DNA of 64,000 nucleotides, taken from the NCBI GenBank assembly GCA_963922775.1, contig CAWUJG010000002.1, positions 6,954 to 70,953 of the forward strand. The letters run 5' to 3'. Positions 3,819 through 49,291 of this stretch are shown here, piece by piece (position 1 is the stretch's first letter; each line of letters opens with the position of its first letter). This stretch comes from an uncultured Cytophagales bacterium (GTDB taxonomy: Bacteria; Bacteroidota; Bacteroidia; Cytophagales; Amoebophilaceae). The notes under the pieces were generated by a model, which was given only the letters and a program-made list of their open reading frames with translations, had not been told where the DNA came from and searched no databases. The translations under genes were made by a program, and so were the position numbers.

Positions 3819-4187
3819 ATGAAAAAAAATAATGTATATAAAAAATCTACTTCTTCCCGTAGTTTTTTTATTCTACTTGCTTCAAAAATGAACTATCTTT
3901 TTATGCTTGTAGAAAGTATTGCCTTAAAACACACCTTATACTTGTTATACCTAGTATTTTTAGGCCTGATATATATATTTAAAACTCACCACTATGAGCA
4001 GAGCATACGCCAGGTGCATTATTTAAATAAAGAGGTAGCTGACTTACGTGTTGATTTGATGACTCTTACTGCAACATATATGTCTCTGACACGTCAATCT
4101 ACTATAGCTAAAAAAGTAGCTATTTATGCTATATATCCTAGTAAAATACCACCCCAATTAGTATCTAATTATTGTTCTCATGACTGA
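3819..4187 (+). CDS. ftsL: FtsL-like cell division protein (Bacteroidota FtsL_2 type)
   Basis: Single TM segment LYLLYLVFLGLIYIF followed by a coiled-coil-like stretch and a ...PSKIPPQLV tail. It sits immediately upstream of ftsI. The true start may be an internal Met. Confidence 0.55.
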   Translation: MKKNNVYKKSTSSRSFFILLASKMNYLFMLVESIALKHTLYLLYLVFLGLIYIFKTHHYEQSIRQVHYLNKEVADLRVDLMTLTATYMSLTRQSTIAKKVAIYAIYPSKIPPQLVSNYCSHD

Positions 4188-4235
4188 AAAAAATAATATG
4201 ATAATAAGGATAAGAGTTTTATTCTTATTTTTTTT

Positions 4236-6281
4236 TTGTTTTGTCTTTATATAGGTTTTCGTATAGGATATATACAGATTATAGAGGGAAAACAATGGAG
4301 AACAAAAGCTACAAAGAAACATATTTTTGAAAGGGTTATTGATCCTATTCGGGGTAATATTTATAGTTATGATGGGGAACTATTGGCAACATCTCTGCCT
4401 TTTTATCGTGTAGCCTTAGATCCTTGTATTGCTTCTAGACACATTTTTTATTCTGGAATTAATCAATTATCACATTTGCTTTCACAGTATTATACTACCC
4501 ATTCTCCCCATTATTTTAGTAAAAAGATAACTCTGGCCAGAGATAGACAGAAAAGATATATTATACTTTCTAAAAAGTACATTAACCATCATCAAAAAAA
4601 AGCTATGGGAAGTTGGCCTATTTTTAATGCAGGAAGATGGCAAGGAGGAGTAATTTTTGAAAAGAAAGAAAAAAGATTTTATCCATTTGGTAAATTGGGA
4701 TTACGTACTATAGGATTTATAAATGAGAATGATAAAGGCGTAGGTATAGAATATAGTTTACATAATCACTTAAAAGGTATACCAGGTAAAGGAAAGTATC
4801 AAAAATTTGTAGGAAATCACTGGAAGCTTATAAAAGATAAGCATACTGTACATCCTATTCATGGTTCTGATATTGTTACTACACTCAATATCCATCTACA
4901 AGATCAAGTACACCATATATTACTTCATGCATTAAAAAAGCATAAAGCCAGGTATGGTTGTGCTATAGTCATGGAAGTGCATACAGGGGCTATTAAGGCT
5001 GTAGCTAATTTGAGCAAAACAGCAGATAATAAATATCAAGAAGATTATAATTATGCCTGGGGAAATCAAGGTAATAGAGAACCAGGGTCTACATTTAAGC
5101 TTGCCACTATGATGGCCATATTAGAAGAAAAAAAATTATCTCCTCATACTATAGTAGATACTGGTTTAGGCAAAAAAAAGTTTTATGACCAAACTATGAA
5201 AGACATTAAAAGGGGGGGGCATGGTAAGATTACTGTAAAAGAAGTTTTTGAAAAATCATCTAACATTGGTATAGCCTTACTAGTAGAAAAATATTTTAAA
5301 AAGCAGCCTCAAAAATTTCTCAATTACTTACAACATTTTGGTCTACAAAGTGCATTAGATATGAATATAAAGGGTATAGGCATACCTATTATAAAACAGG
5401 TAGAAGATACCACTTGGAGTGGTATTACACTTCCATGGATGTCTATGGGTTATGAGCTGAAGCTTACCCCATTACATTTGCTTGCTTTATATAATGCTGT
5501 AGCTAATAATGGAATTTGGGTATCTCCTGTGCTGATAAGTAAGATACAAATGGGTAGTATTTTAATAAAGAAATTTAGTATGCCTGTAAAAGCAAAAAAA
5601 ATATGTTCACAGCATACAGTAACAACAGTGAAAAAAATGCTTGAAGGGGTTGTACAATGTGGTACTGCTATGGGTATAAAAAATAGTTTTTATCCTATAG
5701 CTGGAAAGTCTGGTACAGCACAAAGAATAGAAAAAGGACGATATACAAAATCTTGGTATACTTCTTTTGCTGGGTATTTTCCAGCGCATAACCCAAAGTA
5801 TAGCTGTATAGTATGTATAGATAATCCACAAGGAAAAAATAAATATGGTAGTAACGTAGCTGCACCAGTATTTAAAAAAATAGCAGATAGTATAGCAGTC
5901 AAAGATATTATATCTTTGCCTTCAGAAGATATGAATATAGCTCAAAAAAAAAATATATTTCCCCATATTAAAGTGGGTAAAAAAAATGATTTACTATTTT
6001 TATGTAAGCTAATGAATATTCCTTTTCTAGAAAATAATGCTAAAGATATATGGGTAAGGGCTATAATAAAAAATAAAACTCTACACTGGAAAAAGCACGC
6101 TTTGTTGTCTGAAAATACAATGCCTAGTGTAATAGGCATGACACTAAAAGATGCACTCTATATTTTAGAGAATAGGGGTATAAAAGTAAATTTTCAGGGT
6201 AGGGGAAGAGTATATCAGCAGTCGATAAAGACAGGAAGCCCTATACAGGAAAATTTGTGTATTACATTATACTTGCAATAA
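4236..6281 (+). CDS. ftsI: penicillin-binding protein 3 / peptidoglycan D,D-transpeptidase FtsI with C-terminal PASTA-like domain
   Basis: SxxK (GSTFK), SxN (KSSN) and KSG (AGKSGTA) motifs, in ftsL-ftsI-murE order. The 5' end is uncertain: the ORF-track start is TTG 4236 inside a T10 tract (see finding). Confidence 0.88.
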   Translation: MFCLYIGFRIGYIQIIEGKQWRTKATKKHIFERVIDPIRGNIYSYDGELLATSLPFYRVALDPCIASRHIFYSGINQLSHLLSQYYTTHSPHYFSKKITLARDRQKRYIILSKKYINHHQKKAMGSWPIFNAGRWQGGVIFEKKEKRFYPFGKLGLRTIGFINENDKGVGIEYSLHNHLKGIPGKGKYQKFVGNHWKLIKDKHTVHPIHGSDIVTTLNIHLQDQVHHILLHALKKHKARYGCAIVMEVHTGAIKAVANLSKTADNKYQEDYNYAWGNQGNREPGSTFKLATMMAILEEKKLSPHTIVDTGLGKKKFYDQTMKDIKRGGHGKITVKEVFEKSSNIGIALLVEKYFKKQPQKFLNYLQHFGLQSALDMNIKGIGIPIIKQVEDTTWSGITLPWMSMGYELKLTPLHLLALYNAVANNGIWVSPVLISKIQMGSILIKKFSMPVKAKKICSQHTVTTVKKMLEGVVQCGTAMGIKNSFYPIAGKSGTAQRIEKGRYTKSWYTSFAGYFPAHNPKYSCIVCIDNPQGKNKYGSNVAAPVFKKIADSIAVKDIISLPSEDMNIAQKKNIFPHIKVGKKNDLLFLCKLMNIPFLENNAKDIWVRAIIKNKTLHWKKHALLSENTMPSVIGMTLKDALYILENRGIKVNFQGRGRVYQQSIKTGSPIQENLCITLYLQ

Positions 6282-6282
6282 A

Positions 6283-7746
6283 ATGGTCAGTTTACAAAGT
6301 TTATTACATCATATACCATATAAAACTATAGTAGGCACTTTAGATAAGTCTATTAAGAACATTCATACGCATAGCCTTAAGGCTATATCACACACTCTTT
6401 TTGTAGCACTTAAGGGTTATCAGCAAGATGGACACCTGTTTATAGAACAGGTTATTCAGCAAGGGTGTCAAGCCATAGTAGTAGAAAGGCTTCCAAAAAA
6501 TATACATTCTACAACTACTTATATTGTTGTGAATAATACAAAAAAAACTTTAGGCCTACTAGCTAATAGTTTTTACCACTATCCCTCGAAAAAATTGAAG
6601 TTAATTGCTGTGACAGGTACTAATGGTAAAACTAGTATAGTACACTTACTATACCAGCTATTTAAAAATTTGGGCTATTGTGTAGGCATGCTCTCTACTA
6701 TCTGTAATAAAGTAGATAGTAATGATCCTATAAATACTGCACTTACTACACCTGATAGTCTTACTATAAATAGGCTTTTGTATAAAATGGTGATGAAGGG
6801 GTGTCAGTATTGTTTTATGGAAGCTAGCTCTCATGCTTTGGTCCAGCATCGACTGTTTGACTTGCATTTTACTGGAGCTATTTTTAGTAATATTTCTCAC
6901 GATCATCTAGACTATCACAAAACATTCCATCAATATATTGAAGCTAAAAAGGTATTATTTGATATTTTACCTGATTCTGCTTTTGCCCTATATAATAGTG
7001 ATGATATGCGTGGTAGACAGATGGTACAAAATACATTAGCTACTACTTATGCCTTCTCCTTGCAAAAAGAAGCACATTTTACAGCTCAAATATTAGAGCA
7101 TACTACTGAAGGTATGCATCTATCTATAGATAAAAATGAAGTATGGACTCCCTTGCTCGGCAAGTTTAATGCATATAATTTACTAGCAGTTTATGCAACT
7201 ACTTATTTATTATTACAAGAAAAAAATAATATTTTAGTGGCTATGTCAACCCTTTTGCCAGTACCTGGAAGATGTCAAAAGGTAGTATCTCCTTATATTA
7301 ATTTTAAAGCTTTTGTAGATTATGCGCATACACCAGATGCATTAGAAAATATATTAATAATGTTAACAAAAGTTAATGTTAAAAAAAAAAGAATAATTAC
7401 TGTAATAGGCTGTGGAGGAAATAGAGATAAAGATAAAAGGCCTATAATGGGCAGCATAGCACAAAAATATAGCGCTATAGTTATTTTTACTGCAGATAAT
7501 CCGCGCTATGAATCATCTGAAAAAATTATTGATGATATGCAAAAAGGTTTATCATCTAAGCAAATAGCTAGTATAATTACTTGTACAGATCGTAAACAGG
7601 CTATACATAGAGCATGTGCCATGGCTCAACAAGATGATATACTTTTGGTGGCAGGTAAAGGACATGAAAAATACCAAGAAATACAGGGTGAGCGTTTTTT
7701 TTTTGATGATGTAGATATTATTGAAAAATGGAACAATTGTGATTAA
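6283..7746 (+). CDS. murE: UDP-N-acetylmuramoyl-L-alanyl-D-glutamate--2,6-diaminopimelate ligase
   Basis: Mur ligase P-loop GTNGKTS and the DNPR motif (TADNPRYE) typical of meso-DAP-adding MurE. Confidence 0.9.
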   Translation: MVSLQSLLHHIPYKTIVGTLDKSIKNIHTHSLKAISHTLFVALKGYQQDGHLFIEQVIQQGCQAIVVERLPKNIHSTTTYIVVNNTKKTLGLLANSFYHYPSKKLKLIAVTGTNGKTSIVHLLYQLFKNLGYCVGMLSTICNKVDSNDPINTALTTPDSLTINRLLYKMVMKGCQYCFMEASSHALVQHRLFDLHFTGAIFSNISHDHLDYHKTFHQYIEAKKVLFDILPDSAFALYNSDDMRGRQMVQNTLATTYAFSLQKEAHFTAQILEHTTEGMHLSIDKNEVWTPLLGKFNAYNLLAVYATTYLLLQEKNNILVAMSTLLPVPGRCQKVVSPYINFKAFVDYAHTPDALENILIMLTKVNVKKKRIITVIGCGGNRDKDKRPIMGSIAQKYSAIVIFTADNPRYESSEKIIDDMQKGLSSKQIASIITCTDRKQAIHRACAMAQQDDILLVAGKGHEKYQEIQGERFFFDDVDIIEKWNNCD

Positions 7747-22465: not shown

Positions 22466-23368
22466 TTGCATTACATAAAAACATACGGTGCCTATTTTAT
22501 TAAAGGTATGTTTGTTGGATTGGCAGATCTAATACCAGGTGTTTCTGGAGGCACTATTGCTTTTATTTTGGGTATTTATAGGCCTCTTTTTGCAGCTATT
22601 GCTGCTATTAACAGAAAATCTTTGCAACTATGTTTTGCTGGTGAATGGACACGTTTTTGGCAAACTATCCATGGCAATTTTTTATGTGCTGTGTTTGGAG
22701 GTATCATAACTAGCATTTTTTGCTTTTCTTCTTCTATGCTGCTTTTGATGAGCCTATTTCCTATTTTTCTATACAGTTTTTTTGAAGGTCTTATAATTGC
22801 TTCTGCCCTATATTTTTTCTCTACTATAGAGAAAAAAAGTTTATATACATATTGCTATCTTTTTATTTCTTGTACAGGTACTTATTATTTTATTCAAATG
22901 GATGCTTGGGCTATACCTAATGGTTATCTGTGGATATTGCTTACAGGTATGTTAGCTATATGTGCTATGATTCTACCTGGTATTTCAGGTAGTTTAGTGC
23001 TTATCTTTTTTAATAAATATACCTTGCTTCTACAAGCTCTCTCTAATTTGCAGTTTGATATTTTAGGTTTTTTTGTTTTAGGATGTTTTTTAGGCCTATT
23101 TTTATTTGTACGGATAATTCAATGGCTTCTCCGTTATTATAGTAGTACTATTTTATCTGTTTTAGTTGGTTTTATGCTAGGATCTTTGGGTAAATTATGG
23201 CCTTGGCAAATATGTATAGAGAATATTTACAAAAACTATTATCCTTGGCACTATGAAAAAATTACTGGAAAGTCTGCCCATTTTGGGAGTGCTTTATTAT
23301 GTATATTTTTAGGTGCAGGTTTATTTTTAGCATTAATAAGATGGCAGAATAAAAGAAGATTATATTAA
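22466..23368 (+). CDS. DUF368 family membrane protein (family recently linked to undecaprenyl-phosphate recycling/translocation)
   Basis: Signature LADLIPGVSGGTIAFILGIY with a second ILPGISGS repeat. TTG start per the ORF track; Met at about 22507 is an alternative. Confidence 0.75.
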   Translation: MHYIKTYGAYFIKGMFVGLADLIPGVSGGTIAFILGIYRPLFAAIAAINRKSLQLCFAGEWTRFWQTIHGNFLCAVFGGIITSIFCFSSSMLLLMSLFPIFLYSFFEGLIIASALYFFSTIEKKSLYTYCYLFISCTGTYYFIQMDAWAIPNGYLWILLTGMLAICAMILPGISGSLVLIFFNKYTLLLQALSNLQFDILGFFVLGCFLGLFLFVRIIQWLLRYYSSTILSVLVGFMLGSLGKLWPWQICIENIYKNYYPWHYEKITGKSAHFGSALLCIFLGAGLFLALIRWQNKRRLY

Positions 23369-24040: not shown

Positions 24041-25114
24041 ATGCATTTTAAAGCTAGTAAAAAATACTATCTTATTTTTTTTATTATATTTTTTTTTCAC
24101 CTAACACAGGCTAAGAAAAAAAAAGAAAAAAATCAAGATCAGTTGTATTTTGATACAATAAAAAAAAATTATTCTTATGACCCAGAAACAAAACAATGGT
24201 CTTCAGTGGAAAGTTTTAATACCATAGAAATTATAGAAAAAGAAAAAAAAAATATACCACATGATGAAGATAAAATACTCTATGAAAATTTTTGGACGTA
24301 TAATGCTGATAAAAATAAATGGCTGAAAAAAGATATACCAGTTTATGGATATTCTGATACAAAATATAATGGATATTTAATGCTTAATAAAATATCTTTA
24401 GATATATCTTTAGCTCCTGGGTTTACATACTATCGTAATCATATTAAAGATGCTCAACTCATACAACGTGAAGATGAAAATATTTTTTACATACAATCTA
24501 AAGTAAGAAATATATATAAAATAGACTGGTTCGAAAGTTTATTAAAAAAATTAGATAAAAGATATATTAAAATAAATAGAAAAAAAAATATAAAAAAAAT
24601 GCATTCTCCTACATTGCATGGGATAGGATTTAGTGTGCCTATAAGTATAATTGCCTATGGTAATCTATATACTAAACTTAGATTAGGAGGGGGTATAACA
24701 GGAGTAATAAATTGGATTAACAAACTTAAATTAATAGATAATGAAAAAGATTTTAAAGTATACACTACGGTAGGAAAAAAGTATTTCTTCAATATAAAAT
24801 ACTTTGTATTAATAGCATACAAGTATAAGCAAACAGAAAAATACAACTGGATAGTAGAAAAAAAATTAGGTTTATGTCAAGATTTGGGTAGTATACCCCA
24901 TAGATTATGGAAAGGTAAAAATATTCGCCAAACACTATGCTATAGCCTTGGGCTTCGTACGGAAAAAAAAATCAAAAAAAATAATAAGGTATTTTCCTGC
25001 TTAACTTTAGAGTGGAAATCATATGTAGATACTATAGAAAAAAATTTTGCTATATACCTAAAGCAACCTGCACTATATCTAGAAATAGGTATAGGAACTA
25101 ACTTTAATACATAA
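24041..25114 (+). CDS. hypothetical secreted protein, possibly an outer-membrane beta-barrel
   Basis: N-terminal signal-like YYLIFFIIFFFHLTQA, a Lys-rich N-terminal region, alternating-pattern C-terminal half ending ...LYLEIGIGTNFNT. No family recognised. Confidence 0.4.
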   Translation: MHFKASKKYYLIFFIIFFFHLTQAKKKKEKNQDQLYFDTIKKNYSYDPETKQWSSVESFNTIEIIEKEKKNIPHDEDKILYENFWTYNADKNKWLKKDIPVYGYSDTKYNGYLMLNKISLDISLAPGFTYYRNHIKDAQLIQREDENIFYIQSKVRNIYKIDWFESLLKKLDKRYIKINRKKNIKKMHSPTLHGIGFSVPISIIAYGNLYTKLRLGGGITGVINWINKLKLIDNEKDFKVYTTVGKKYFFNIKYFVLIAYKYKQTEKYNWIVEKKLGLCQDLGSIPHRLWKGKNIRQTLCYSLGLRTEKKIKKNNKVFSCLTLEWKSYVDTIEKNFAIYLKQPALYLEIGIGTNFNT

Positions 25115-25126
25115 AAGATACACATC

Positions 25127-27817
25127 TTGTACAAAAAGAAAATTAAAGTAGGCATATTTCTTGGAGGAAGATCAAGAGAAAAAGAAATTTCTTTTGCAGG
25201 AGGTAGAACAGTATATGATAATTTAGATAAAAATATTTTTGAACCTATACCTATATTTATAGACAGTATAGGTAACTTTATTTTACTCCATTGGCAGTAT
25301 TTATACCAAGGCACTATCCGTGATTTTTATCCAACACCAACAGAAAAGGAAAAATATTCTGTATATGTTAATGCATTAAACTCTCAATACGTTAATATAG
25401 AAGCTATTATAAAAAAAGTAGGTAAAAAAATTACACCAGAACAGTTTTCCAGCTACTTTGATACTGCCTTTTTAGTGCTGCATGGTAAGTATGGGGAAGA
25501 TGGTACAATACAGGCCATGTTAGAATGGTATCAGATTCCCTACACAGGTGTTGGTATTTTGGGATCTTCATTAGGTATCAACAAAAAAATACAAAATGAA
25601 TGGATGAAAAAAAACCATTTTTGTGTAACTAAAAAGTGGTTTCTATATGAAGAAGAATGGCATACTACTTCTGATTATCAGCAGCTTTTGTCTGATATTA
25701 TAGAAAAAATAGGTTTACCATTTATTGTAAAAAGTAACACACAAGGGTCATCTATTGGTATATCGGTTATACATACAAGATGTTTGAATACTTTTATACA
25801 AGCAGTAGAAAAAAGTTTTTTTTACTATAAACTGAAACCTTTAGTCTGGCAAGAATATACTGAAGATGAAAAAAAAGAATGGGTTCAATCCTTATTAGAT
25901 CCTAGAAAAAGTATAGGTTTCCCGGTATATACACAAAAAAAAATTATTTATCATCCTGAAGAACTCATCGTTTATCTTAACTATTATTGTAATCATAACC
26001 AGGATCCTATTATATTAAAAAGTATTTATAAAGAAAGTGAAGTATTGTGTGAAACTTATTTAGCTGGTAGAGAATTTTCTTGTATAGTTATTACAGATAA
26101 TAAGGGGTATCCTATAGCCCTTCCTCCTACTGAAATTATACAGGAAAATATTTTTTTTGACTATCGTGCAAAGTATATGCCTGGGTTAGTCCGTAAGCAA
26201 ACACCTATGCGCATAGACTATACTACTATACAAAATATACGAGAAATATGCGTGTCATTATTCCGTACTTTACACTTTAATGTATGGGCAAGAATAGATG
26301 GTATAGTAACTGATAATAAGTGTATATACCTTATAGATCCTAATACTACATCAGGTATGATGCCTTCTTCATTTTTATTTCATCAAGCGGCACATATTGG
26401 CTTAAACCCTACAGCATTTCTTAACTTAATTATTTATAATTCACTAAAAACAAGAAAAAAAGAGTATATTTATCAAAAGAAGATTCCTCAACTTATAAAA
26501 AGAATTGATAGTCATATACAGTGCAGTCAAACAGATGATATAAAAAAAATAAAAGTAGGTATATTAATAGGGGGATTTTCTGCTGAAAAGCACATTTCGC
26601 TAGAAAGTGGACGTAATGTATATCAGAAATTAGCTTCTTCTACAAAATATATTCCTATACCTATATTATTATCAGGATCTGAAAAAGAGCATCAGCTTTT
26701 TATACTCCCTATACATTTACTACTCAAAGATCATGCAGATGATATACACCAGCAAGTACAAGCACAAAATCAAAAAAATAGTGAAAAAAGTATATTATCA
26801 GCAATACAGCAAGAAGCCAAAAGTATTACACAAAAGTATACAGCCCACTTTATAGAACGGCCTCAAAGAATTACTTATAAACAATTGAAATATTGGGTAC
26901 AGTTTATGTTTATTGCTTTGCATGGCAGGCCAGGTGAAGATGGTACTATACAGCAAATATTATCTAAAGAAAATATACCTTATAATGGATCTGATCAAGC
27001 AACTTCTTTTATATGTATGGATAAGTATAAAACTAATCAGCTATTAAAAACTCAAGGTATAAAAGTGGCAGAACAGCTATGTATAGAAAAAAAACAATGG
27101 AAAAAAGATGGACAAAAATGTATATCAAAAATTGAAAAAAAATTTTCTTATCCATACATTGTAAAACCTATTGATGAGGGGTGCAGTGCAGGTGTAATAT
27201 GTATTAATACACAAGAACAGTTAATTACTTATATAAAATCTACCTTTGAGCTTCCAAAAATAGATGCTAAAACCTATAGGTCAATACTTCACATGCCAGA
27301 AAATACGTATTTACCTTGTAAAAAAAGCATTTTAATAGAAGAAATGATTACAAAAGGAAAAGCTCAAAATTTGCTAGAAATAACTGGTGGGTTATTAACC
27401 CCTATAAAAACGGATGACAAAAAAAGTATAACATATGAAATATTACCTCCTTCAGAAACTTTGGCTAACCATACTATTCTTTCTTTAGAAGAAAAGTTTT
27501 TAGCAGGAGAAGGACAAAATATTACTCCGGCTCGTTTTCATACAAATAAAACTATTAATAAAAAGATACAAGTGCAAGTGCAGCAAACATTTAAAAGAGT
27601 AGCTCAGATACTTAACATACAAGGGTATGCCCGTATAGATGCTTTTGTAAAAATAAATACAGCAGAAGATGTAGATATTTTTATTATAGAAGTAAATACT
27701 TTACCTGCCCTTACACCTGCTACGTGTATATTTCATCAGTGTGCTTTACAGGGTTATAAGCCTTATGAATTTCTTGATAAAATTATTCAGTATGGTTTGA
27801 AACACAAAAAAAGATAA
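25127..27817 (+). CDS. ddl: tandem-duplicated D-alanine--D-alanine ligase-like protein (two ATP-grasp Ddl modules in one 896-aa ORF)
   Basis: Module 1 has KIKVGIFLGGRSREKEIS, HGKYGEDGTIQ, FFDYRAKY and ARIDG...IDPNTTSGM. Module 2 has KIKVGILIGGFSAEKHIS, HGRPGEDGTIQ, LEEKFLAGEGQ and ARIDAF...IEVNTLPALT. TTG start at 25127. Confidence 0.8.
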   Translation: MYKKKIKVGIFLGGRSREKEISFAGGRTVYDNLDKNIFEPIPIFIDSIGNFILLHWQYLYQGTIRDFYPTPTEKEKYSVYVNALNSQYVNIEAIIKKVGKKITPEQFSSYFDTAFLVLHGKYGEDGTIQAMLEWYQIPYTGVGILGSSLGINKKIQNEWMKKNHFCVTKKWFLYEEEWHTTSDYQQLLSDIIEKIGLPFIVKSNTQGSSIGISVIHTRCLNTFIQAVEKSFFYYKLKPLVWQEYTEDEKKEWVQSLLDPRKSIGFPVYTQKKIIYHPEELIVYLNYYCNHNQDPIILKSIYKESEVLCETYLAGREFSCIVITDNKGYPIALPPTEIIQENIFFDYRAKYMPGLVRKQTPMRIDYTTIQNIREICVSLFRTLHFNVWARIDGIVTDNKCIYLIDPNTTSGMMPSSFLFHQAAHIGLNPTAFLNLIIYNSLKTRKKEYIYQKKIPQLIKRIDSHIQCSQTDDIKKIKVGILIGGFSAEKHISLESGRNVYQKLASSTKYIPIPILLSGSEKEHQLFILPIHLLLKDHADDIHQQVQAQNQKNSEKSILSAIQQEAKSITQKYTAHFIERPQRITYKQLKYWVQFMFIALHGRPGEDGTIQQILSKENIPYNGSDQATSFICMDKYKTNQLLKTQGIKVAEQLCIEKKQWKKDGQKCISKIEKKFSYPYIVKPIDEGCSAGVICINTQEQLITYIKSTFELPKIDAKTYRSILHMPENTYLPCKKSILIEEMITKGKAQNLLEITGGLLTPIKTDDKKSITYEILPPSETLANHTILSLEEKFLAGEGQNITPARFHTNKTINKKIQVQVQQTFKRVAQILNIQGYARIDAFVKINTAEDVDIFIIEVNTLPALTPATCIFHQCALQGYKPYEFLDKIIQYGLKHKKR

Positions 27818-48355: not shown

Positions 48356-49291
48356 ATGTGCAACATCACGCCAAAAATAGACATCGCCTTTAAAAAAATA
48401 TTTGGTACAGAAGAAAACAAAGATCTTTTGATCTCCTTAATCAACGCTATAGTAAGCCCCACAGACCAAGTAGAAGACCTGACTTTAAGAAATCCCTATA
48501 GTTACCAAAACTATATAGATAATAAACTCTCCATTTTTGACATAAAAGCGCAAAGTATAACAGGAGAAGAATACAACATAGAAATGCAACTCAAAGATGA
48601 CGAACAATATGAAAGACGTGCCCTCTATTATTGGGCACGCCTTTATAGTGATCAGCTTAAAAAAGGAAAAAATTACAAAACTTTAAAAAAATCTATAGGT
48701 ATACATCTACTCAATTTTACTTGCCTTTCAGATATAAAAAAATACCATAATGTGTTTCAAATGCGAGAAAGAGACAGCCATAAACATTATTTTAAAGATA
48801 TAGAAATCCATATAATAGAGTTGAATAAATTTTCAGTTCAAGAAGAAGAAAACCTAAATAGTTTAATAGAAAAGATACAAAGCAGTTTAGACATTTGGCT
48901 AGCATTTTTAACACATCATAATTTATTAAATCAAGCGGCACTTCCAGAACCTTTAGATACGCCTTATATGCAAAAAGCGTTACATACCCTATCGTGCCTG
49001 AATTTTAATAATATAGAACGCGATATTTATGAAGGGCGTTTGAAATGGCTTCGTCATGAATCACTTGTTTTAGAACAATCTTTTGAAAAAGGCATGGAAA
49101 AAGGCATAGAAAAGGGAAGACAAGAAGGCATAGAAAAGGGAAGACAAGAAGGTATATTTGAAGGGGAAAAGCAAAAATCGCAATCTATTACCAAAAAACT
49201 TTTAAAAAATTATGCTCTAACCTTAGAGCAAATCAGCCAAATTACTGGCCTAAGCAAAGCTGAAATAGATGTTTTAAAAAAAAATCTATAA
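48356..49291 (+). CDS. Rpn family recombination-promoting nuclease / putative transposase (PDDEXK_2-like), apparently intact
   Basis: N-terminus TPKIDIAFKKIFGTEENKDLLISLINAIV, nuclease core FDIKAQ...YNIEMQ, and a C-terminal EKG-repeat plus helix-turn-helix-like tail LEQISQITGLSKAEIDVL. Confidence 0.75.
   Translation: MCNITPKIDIAFKKIFGTEENKDLLISLINAIVSPTDQVEDLTLRNPYSYQNYIDNKLSIFDIKAQSITGEEYNIEMQLKDDEQYERRALYYWARLYSDQLKKGKNYKTLKKSIGIHLLNFTCLSDIKKYHNVFQMRERDSHKHYFKDIEIHIIELNKFSVQEEENLNSLIEKIQSSLDIWLAFLTHHNLLNQAALPEPLDTPYMQKALHTLSCLNFNNIERDIYEGRLKWLRHESLVLEQSFEKGMEKGIEKGRQEGIEKGRQEGIFEGEKQKSQSITKKLLKNYALTLEQISQITGLSKAEIDVLKKNL
49103..49150 (+). repeat. perfect 24-bp tandem duplication (ggcatagaaaagggaagacaagaa x2) encoding GIEKGRQE twice within the Rpn-like gene
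   Basis: Units 49103-49126 and 49127-49150 are identical base for base. Confidence 0.9.

Follow-up and report, generated by a model that had tools for sequence, protein, structure and literature searches.

A double D-Ala-D-Ala ligase gene from an Amoebophilaceae bacterium and its widespread two-module family

D-Ala-D-Ala ligases (Ddl) are compact enzymes of ~306 amino acids (aa) in the case of DdlB and ~360 aa in DdlA-type proteins, and they work as homodimers of identical sites. A gene in the genome of an uncultured Cytophagales bacterium of the Amoebophilaceae raises the question of why one polypeptide should carry two such enzymes. It lies in the 64,000-nucleotide (nt) stretch analysed here (hereafter the window; contig CAWUJG010000002.1, positions 6,954 to 70,953) and encodes a protein of 896 aa, which a sequence-only reading had described as two complete Ddl modules in tandem. 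That reading left two options for the pair, two ligases with different products or one catalytic module with a regulatory or pseudo-enzyme partner, and asked for a check against two ordinary genes merged by an error. We find that the gene, which we call the double ddl, is a member of an old and widespread double-Ddl family, an architecture that is common and present as an annotated Ddl family in hundreds of genomes. We think it probable, with some reserve, that the protein is a cytoplasmic peptidoglycan-precursor ligase with two active, non-redundant modules, a classical site in the N module and a rebuilt pocket in the C module, whose product goes to MurF.

Two Ddl modules in one reading frame

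The open reading frame (ORF) list gives the gene as a single frame with no internal stop or frame break, and Pfam finds both Ddl domains in it twice. Residues 1-468 match Dala_Dala_lig_N (E = 5e-26, 92.0 bits) and Dala_Dala_lig_C (E = 1e-27, 97.4 bits), and residues 469-896 match them again (E = 4e-21, 76.2 bits, and E = 1e-25, 91.0 bits). All four matches lie far above the gathering cut-offs of 34.6 bits (PF01820) and 24 bits (PF07478). An alignment of one half to the other runs over their whole length with 27% identity (E = 7e-36), and for both halves the top match among solved structures is the Bacillus anthracis Ddl 3r23 (E = 1.6e-36 for the N half, 1.4e-24 for the C half). The translation begins at a TTG codon, the sole in-frame start available 3' of the stop codon of the preceding gene (25112-25114). 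A scan for promoters and terminators around the double ddl returned nothing above chance.

Compared with canonical Ddl (DdlB, Protein Data Bank (PDB) entry 2dln; DdlA; 3r23), both modules have the three-domain ATP-grasp fold and the ATP, Mg and catalytic residues in common, with one Mg ligand changed in the N module. The protein differs from these enzymes in that two diverged modules are joined and each carries two insertions of 54-72 aa. The insertions, which the sequence-only reading had recognised as long relative to Escherichia coli DdlB, sit at the same two sites in both modules. The first, after DdlB residue 40, is 54 aa long in the N module and 64 aa in the C module; the second, after DdlB residue 171, measures 72 and 55 aa, respectively. 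Insertion 1 of the N module contains the invariant motif W56..Y60.G62..R65-D66-F67.P69. The modules also share an FHQ motif. These common insertion sites and the common motif are no more than a hint of an internal duplication as opposed to a fusion of two older paralogues; in a tree with DdlB as the sole single-module outgroup, the split between N and C modules is uninformative on this point.

We predicted the structure of all 896 residues with AlphaFold2, using an alignment of 72 sequences, and obtained a model with a mean predicted local distance difference test (pLDDT) score of 84.2 and a predicted template modelling (pTM) score of 0.85. Insertion 2 of the N module is predicted to form a folded helical and stranded sub-domain (pLDDT 80-94). 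Confidence is lowest at the two omega loops (aa 341-360 and 783-797, the latter below 50), as expected of a mobile lid. The PDB chains returned by Foldseek were exclusively those of Ddl, VanA, VanG and LmDdl2, and none spanned more than one module; the fold match to Ddl crystal structures reaches target-normalised template modelling scores of 0.78-0.87, and the DdlB Y216F structure (1iow) is among the matches. Because a pTM of 0.85 is too high for freely hinged halves, the N and C modules plausibly pack in the model as a fixed unit equivalent to the Ddl homodimer.

Table 1. Position of the double ddl and of its modules, insertions and active-site residues in the window.
Feature	Position (nt)	Strand	Basis
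Whole gene, double D-Ala-D-Ala ligase	25127..27817	+	TTG start, stop 27815-27817; 2x PF01820 and 2x PF07478
N-type module, aa 1-454	25127..26488	+	Hidden Markov model (HMM) envelope, residue mapping to DdlB
N-module insertion 1, aa 44-97, after DdlB residue 40	25256..25417	+	Alignment to DdlB
N-module insertion 2, aa 229-300, after DdlB residue 171	25811..26026	+	Alignment to DdlB
N-module omega-loop Lys349-Tyr350 (RAKY; DdlB K215-Y216)	26171..26176	+	Y in 120/120 close relatives
N-module Mg site Asp404-Pro-Asn406 (DdlB E270-x-N272)	26336..26344	+	D in 120/120 close relatives
Inter-module linker, predicted helix, aa 452-469	26480..26533	+	AlphaFold2 secondary structure; continuous frame
C-type module, aa 467-896	26525..27814	+	HMM envelope, residue mapping to DdlB
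C-module insertion 1, aa 514-577, same site as N-module insertion 1	26666..26857	+	Alignment to DdlB
C-module Cys686 replacing DdlB Ser150	27182..27184	+	C in 120/120 close relatives
C-module insertion 2, aa 708-762, same site as N-module insertion 2	27248..27412	+	Alignment to DdlB
C-module omega-loop Lys790-Phe791 (EEKF; DdlB K215-Y216)	27494..27499	+	F in 120/120 close relatives
C-module Mg site Glu855-Val-Asn857	27689..27697	+	Alignment to DdlB

Two different and conserved active sites

Residues were mapped onto E. coli DdlB, whose sequence we checked to be identical to that of 2dln. The N module has the canonical triad E18/S208/Y350 (DdlB Glu15-Ser150-Tyr216) and keeps S415, while F416 replaces Leu282. 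In DdlB numbering, K97, K144, K215, R255, D257 and N272 are present, and Glu270 is exchanged for Asp404, a conservative replacement shared without exception across the family. The C module has the full set of K97, K144, K215, R255, D257, E270 and N272 and keeps the triad glutamate (E487), and carries C686, F791, T866 and C867 at DdlB positions 150, 216, 281 and 282. In DdlB, the second-substrate site is shaped by Ser150, Ser281 and Leu282, of which Ser281-Leu282 forms the site for the D-Ala2 carboxylate. The residue assignments made from sequence, namely Tyr in RAKY of the N module against Phe in EEKF of the C module, and D-P-N against E-V-N at the Mg sites, thus all agreed with the alignment.

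Each module keeps its own pattern throughout the family. Among 120 close relatives, E15, H63, K97, K144, K215, R255, D257 and N272 are retained without exception in both modules. In these proteins the N module is invariant for S150, Y216, S281 and D270, with F282 in nearly all cases, and the C module is invariant for C150, F216, T281 and E270, with C282 in nearly all cases. The cysteine at position 150 is also retained in the Dependentiae and Actinomycetota-type clades. We extended the comparison to 94 representatives with two complete modules, drawn from the length classes of ~890, ~740 and ~800 aa described below. The N signature EHKKSKYRDDNGSF is exact in 68 of them, and 13 more differ by one conservative change (K144 to Arg, S281 to Thr, or Leu/Ile at position 282), giving 81/94. 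The C core signature EHKKCKFRDEN[GA]T is likewise found in 81/94, in all clades. The window protein has exactly S150/Y216/D270/F282 in its N module and C150/F216/E270/T281 in its C module, and its order of an N-type module followed by a C-type module recurs with the signatures in 81/94 representatives. Overall, the set of ATP, Mg and catalytic residues is retained in ~81/94 representatives, with named members in Cytophagales, Dependentiae and Actinomycetota. As these residues are intact, both modules are most likely active.

Distribution, variants and gene neighbourhood

To the sequence-only reading, a Ddl-Ddl tandem appeared undescribed. Database searches overturned this view, since the architecture is abundant. 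In a search of 5.8 billion proteins, all 120 best matches were full length (~890-900 aa, 47-61% identity), with Cytophagaceae, Pontibacter, Adhaeribacter, Rhodocytophaga and Amoebophilaceae as named sources; the closest named relative among the matches listed is a protein from an Amoebophilaceae metagenome-assembled genome (MAG) with ~50% identity. Scanning one genome per species gave at least 595 matching stretches. The best 80 of these, on which our comparisons of genome loci rest, all span residues ~1-896 and come mostly from Cytophagales (Hymenobacteraceae, Cytophagaceae, Cyclobacteriaceae, Microscillaceae, Roseivirgaceae, Amoebophilaceae and Raineyaceae). Taking the protein search and the genome scan together, full-length homologues span 43-61% identity. 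A HMMER search of 1.84 billion cluster representatives produced 459 matches below 1e-30, and the top 150 were all double-module proteins, fragments or lone modules of the double-Ddl family.

The family falls into three length classes. Proteins of ~890 aa are those of Cytophagales. A class of ~740 aa, in which the long insertions are absent or much shortened, belongs to Candidatus Dependentiae/Babeliales and is encoded on contigs of 1.1-1.6 Mb. The third class, of ~800 aa and with insertions in the C module only, comprises Dactylosporangium, Pseudofrankia and other Actinomycetota, as well as MAGs labelled Rickettsiales and Gammaproteobacteria. In a distance tree, the N modules form one clade and the C modules another, and the branching inside each is the same, with the 800-aa type followed by Dependentiae plus Cytophagales. 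The mirrored trees suggest that the pairing arose once and that the modules have co-evolved since, which indicates a single, ancient event.

The same architecture is reported for plants. According to published work, plant DDL consists of two putatively complete DDL enzymes fused into one and occurs throughout the plant lineage, and knocking out the moss gene abolishes the dimerisation of D-alanine for peptidoglycan and gives rise to macrochloroplasts (PMC9954125). Moss has the ordinary D-Ala-D-Ala pentapeptide as its precursor, and the nearest homologues of its Ddl are those of the Fibrobacteres-Chlorobi-Bacteroidetes (FCB) group (PMC9434261); a survey of horizontal transfer assigned At3g08840 to a donor among 'Chlamydiae/CFB bacteria' (PMC3493653). 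The plastid enzymes (Physcomitrium PpDDL BAE45860, Arabidopsis At3g08840 and rice BAF22630) resemble the window protein in having two Ddl units per polypeptide, but their genes are nuclear, eukaryotic and intron-bearing. The likeness between plant and bacterial proteins is taken from the published architecture and the published statements of CFB or FCB affinity. In the literature we found, no module-level biochemistry of plant DDL is reported, and our searches returned no paper on a bacterial Ddl-Ddl enzyme. A published table of Cardinium cell-wall genes lists murA-G, mraY and penicillin-binding proteins and has no entry for ddl, which is uninformative here.

Two other known systems offer partial parallels. 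The D-Ala-D-lactate ligase LmDdl2 (PDB 1ehi) of the Leuconostoc/Lactobacillus type has Phe261 at the omega-loop position of Phe791 in the C module, a position held by His244 in VanA-type enzymes, but the Phe-type ligases are single-module proteins and their sequence kinship to the C module is weak (44 bits to 1ehi). Membership of the C module in the VanA or LmDdl2 families was rejected, its scores falling far below the respective cut-offs: 83-95 bits against the VanA, VanB and VanD models, for which the Van exception cut-offs are 650-775. The chlamydial MurC-Ddl protein (NF011171) is likewise a Ddl fused to an enzyme of the same pathway, with a Mur ligase as the partner where the window protein has a second Ddl. 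The MurC-Ddl type was rejected as well, since the window protein has no Mur_ligase match in Pfam and scores 181.7 bits against a cut-off of 1015. Ddl-Ddl-Mur ligase triple fusions (P0249) are related to the double Ddl and occur outside the window genome.

Split forms of the gene show the modules apart. In one lineage (locus L085, 4001-6850) the order is Mrp, N gene, 138 nt, C gene and a gene for a PASTA-domain protein. In one metagenome sample, an N-only gene and a C-only gene lie on separate contigs with 21% and 26% G+C (L087, 4001-5209; L090, 4001-5299). The module signatures are intact in all of these split genes. Retention of both modules when unlinked on very AT-rich contigs, the contigs being linked by their shared sample, argues that the N and C modules are non-redundant.

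The neighbourhood of the double ddl points to the cell wall. In most of the 80 loci a gene for a PASTA-repeat membrane protein follows directly downstream on the same strand (a cluster of 62 ORFs). In Cytophagales this gene is followed by a gene for a protein sorted by the type IX secretion system (T9SS) and a rhodanese gene, and Mrp/NifU or pgk lies upstream. The recurrent neighbours across the 80 loci are PASTA, the T9SS-tail protein, rhodanese, Mrp/NifU, pgk, Ham1, RluD and an M50 peptidase. The window locus lacks the PASTA neighbour. Three proteins (P0122, P0124 and P0146) join Ddl-Ddl, a transmembrane (TM) segment and PASTA in one chain and have active signatures. Loci L083 (485-9939) and L081 (10001-16685) show a compact set in which a Ddl-Ddl-Mur ligase protein of 1262 aa lies between a murL-like epimerase and a murD2-like ligase on one side and a Mur ligase-alanine racemase protein of 876 aa on the other, and, in Dactylosporangium, a Mur ligase-alanine racemase fusion encoded ~1.8 kb from the double ddl; the arrangement looks like a self-contained stem-peptide module. 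The adjacency to PASTA, together with the fusions or linkage to PASTA, Mur ligase and racemase, supports a cell-wall role of the double Ddl. A further fusion (P0255, 987 aa) carries a GNAT acetyltransferase domain N-terminal to a double Ddl with active signatures.

A second group of Ddl-Ddl-TM-PASTA proteins of ~1200 aa (P0163, P0170, P0178, P0179, P0184, P0187, P0220 and P0221; locus L093, 8001-11645) has lost both catalytic sites. They are annotated only as 'PASTA domain-containing protein', and their named sources are Haliscomenobacter and Bacteroidetes/Bacteroidota MAGs. The fusion lies at the syntenic position where Cytophagales have the active gene and the PASTA gene, and is followed by rhodanese. 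These proteins look like pseudo-enzyme scaffolds. Their existence suggests that the scaffold can persist in a non-catalytic role, and that a separate active Ddl must exist in the Haliscomenobacter lineage.

The window also contains further cell-wall genes, which likewise speak for a cell-wall role of the double Ddl, along with genes of other kinds. Immediately upstream, a gene at 24041-25114 (+) encodes a Lys-rich protein of 357 aa that has a hydrophobic N terminus and matches nothing in Pfam; 12 nt separate its end from the TTG, and it may be co-transcribed with the double ddl. A 300-aa membrane protein similar to VCA0040 and undecaprenyl-phosphate translocases (22466-23368, +; Pfam E = 2.4e-73) is encoded 1.7 kb further upstream and represents another lipid-carrier or cell-wall gene; the distance is counted from the double ddl. 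At 3819-7746 (+), a small ftsL-like ORF, a penicillin-binding protein of the ftsI type ending in a PASTA domain (4236-6281) and murE (6283-7746) are followed directly by leuS; this region reads as the remnant of a broken-up division and cell-wall cluster in which the peptidoglycan genes were retained. Farther downstream, a 314-aa protein (29439-30383, +) combines a ubiquitin carboxyl-terminal hydrolase (UCH) domain of eukaryotic type (Pfam E = 5.7e-31) with an N terminus that is hydrophobic and looks like a lipoprotein signal. The UCH gene, the G+C content of 30% and the reduced gene context suggest that the window derives from an Amoebophilaceae-like intracellular symbiont that has an effector directed at its host. 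A transposase gene of the PD-(D/E)XK nuclease family (48356-49291, +; Pfam E = 4.5e-60) between the enolase and shikimate dehydrogenase genes reads as the trace of a mobile element amid a housekeeping stretch.

Weighing the explanations

In the mechanism we favour, the N-type module would join D-Ala and D-Ala to D-Ala-D-Ala, as its classical Glu-Ser-Tyr triad implies. The C-type module would keep the site for the first D-Ala and the chemistry and present a rebuilt pocket to the second substrate (Cys150, Phe216, Thr281 and a small residue or Cys at position 282), giving it a different second-substrate selectivity or different kinetics. The modules would probably pack together as the covalent equivalent of a Ddl homodimer, and the product would feed MurF in the synthesis of cytoplasmic peptidoglycan precursors. 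In free-living relatives, the double Ddl would act together with the membrane PASTA-domain protein. We infer that the double Ddl is the main supplier of D-Ala-D-Ala in this organism.

Several points weigh against this account. Taken alone, each module scores below the curated NCBIfam cut-offs for Ddl of 245.65 bits (TIGR01205) and 243 bits (NF002378): the N module reaches 198.1 and 211.4 bits and the C module 172.5 and 171.9 bits, respectively. The whole protein passes both models (363.4 and 375.6 bits) because the scores of the two modules add up. The Asp in place of the Mg ligand Glu270 might weaken catalysis in the N module, and the measure behind the inter-module packing is the pTM. In Haliscomenobacter, the gene in the corresponding position encodes a Ddl-Ddl-PASTA fusion whose catalytic residues have degenerated. 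Finally, we found no enzymology in the literature for any bacterial double-Ddl member.

Among the alternatives, the one that survives best holds that the C module is a ligase for another product (D-Ala-D-lactate, D-Ala-D-Ser or another D-Ala-D-X), so that the cell would have two kinds of stem-peptide terminus. Ser150, Ser281 and Leu282 are all replaced in the C module by invariant residues, both modules are retained even at separate loci, and, when scores are set against those for generic Ddl, the C module outperforms the N module on the D-Ala-D-Lac model NF000206 (107.6 against 75 bits). Yet the cut-off of this model is 550 bits, and the C module is nearer to DdlB and DdlA than to LmDdl2 (80 bits to DdlB against 44 bits to 1ehi). 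The DdlB Y216F mutant (1iow) is reported to still make the dipeptide, which we count against a changed product. No VanH- or VanX-like gene occurs among the recurrent neighbours in the 80 loci, where the recurrent neighbours alone were annotated. The Tyr/Phe exchange in the omega loop, to which the sequence-only reading had pointed, is a published determinant of dipeptide against depsipeptide synthesis in lactic acid bacteria (PMC5996685); against this stands the ordinary pentapeptide of moss (PMC9434261). We regard a different product as unlikely. From the idea of a subfunctionalised pair, what stands is that the active sites differ, that the differences are module-specific and that they are near-invariant over distant clades, which fits two specialised, non-redundant units; a difference in product keeps only the low standing just given.

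Alternatively, the double gene might be accessory, an ordinary ddl elsewhere supplying the D-Ala-D-Ala of the wall while the double Ddl makes another D-alanyl product or takes part in PASTA-linked control. The apparently accessory locus of Dactylosporangium, with the Mur ligase-alanine racemase fusion nearby, fits this possibility, as do the dead Haliscomenobacter copies, which imply a second, active Ddl there. On the other side, intact sites are kept in small or reduced genomes (the AT-rich window, the Dependentiae contigs of 1.1-1.6 Mb and the contigs of 21-26% G+C), and we found no second ddl either in the 64 kb of the window or, in the 80 relatives, at less than 8 kb from the double gene. 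Moss also requires its double DDL for D-alanine dimerisation (PMC9954125). An accessory role is distinctly unlikely in our judgement.

The possibility that only one module catalyses, the other being a pseudo-enzyme of regulatory or structural function that stabilises or controls its partner, draws on the loss of the Ser and Tyr of the triad in the C module, on the Asp at the Mg ligand of the N module, and on the PASTA fusions of Haliscomenobacter and other Bacteroidota, in which both Ddl modules are fully degenerate. Pseudo-enzymes normally lose their catalytic residues, as the Haliscomenobacter proteins did. In the active family, however, the residues for ATP, Mg and the transition state are invariant in both modules over a very deep divergence, and we consider the pseudo-enzyme option, which the sequence-only reading had entertained, distinctly unlikely for this gene. 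Last, a merger of two neighbouring ddl genes by a missed stop or frameshift, conceivable from the A7 and A8 runs at the A-rich junction (26450-26550) and from the adjacent split genes that really exist in one lineage, is excluded in practice, because the frame, read directly from the sequence, is unbroken across both runs, the single-ORF architecture with an alignable linker recurs at all 80 of the best loci in the genome scan and in dozens of clusters (50% identity) whose members stem from independent assemblies, and full-length homologues occur in hundreds of genomes.

The window gene itself is an ordinary member of the double-Ddl family, whose architecture has already been described in plants. 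The interest lies at the level of the family: in its invariant second active site, its coupling to PASTA proteins, its split and dead variants and its link to plants. A two-module Ddl is used by one order of Bacteroidota, by Dependentiae and by land plants, with the second site rebuilt exactly at the positions of product specificity, and the bacterial double Ddl is a likely source architecture for the plant DDL fusion. Ddl is a classic antibiotic target (of D-cycloserine), and its reprogramming causes vancomycin resistance. We put forward, as a tentative and rather improbable proposal, that the C module with Cys150, Phe216 and Thr281 acts as an enzyme in its own right, making a separate product (a depsipeptide or a D-Ala-D-X dipeptide) or following a separate regulatory logic. 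If so, Cytophagales, Dependentiae and, by descent, plant plastids would build or tune the termini of their peptidoglycan with a two-site hetero-ligase, which in free-living forms would be wired to a periplasm-sensing PASTA protein, and a well-studied antibiotic-target step would contain a previously unrecognised branch point.

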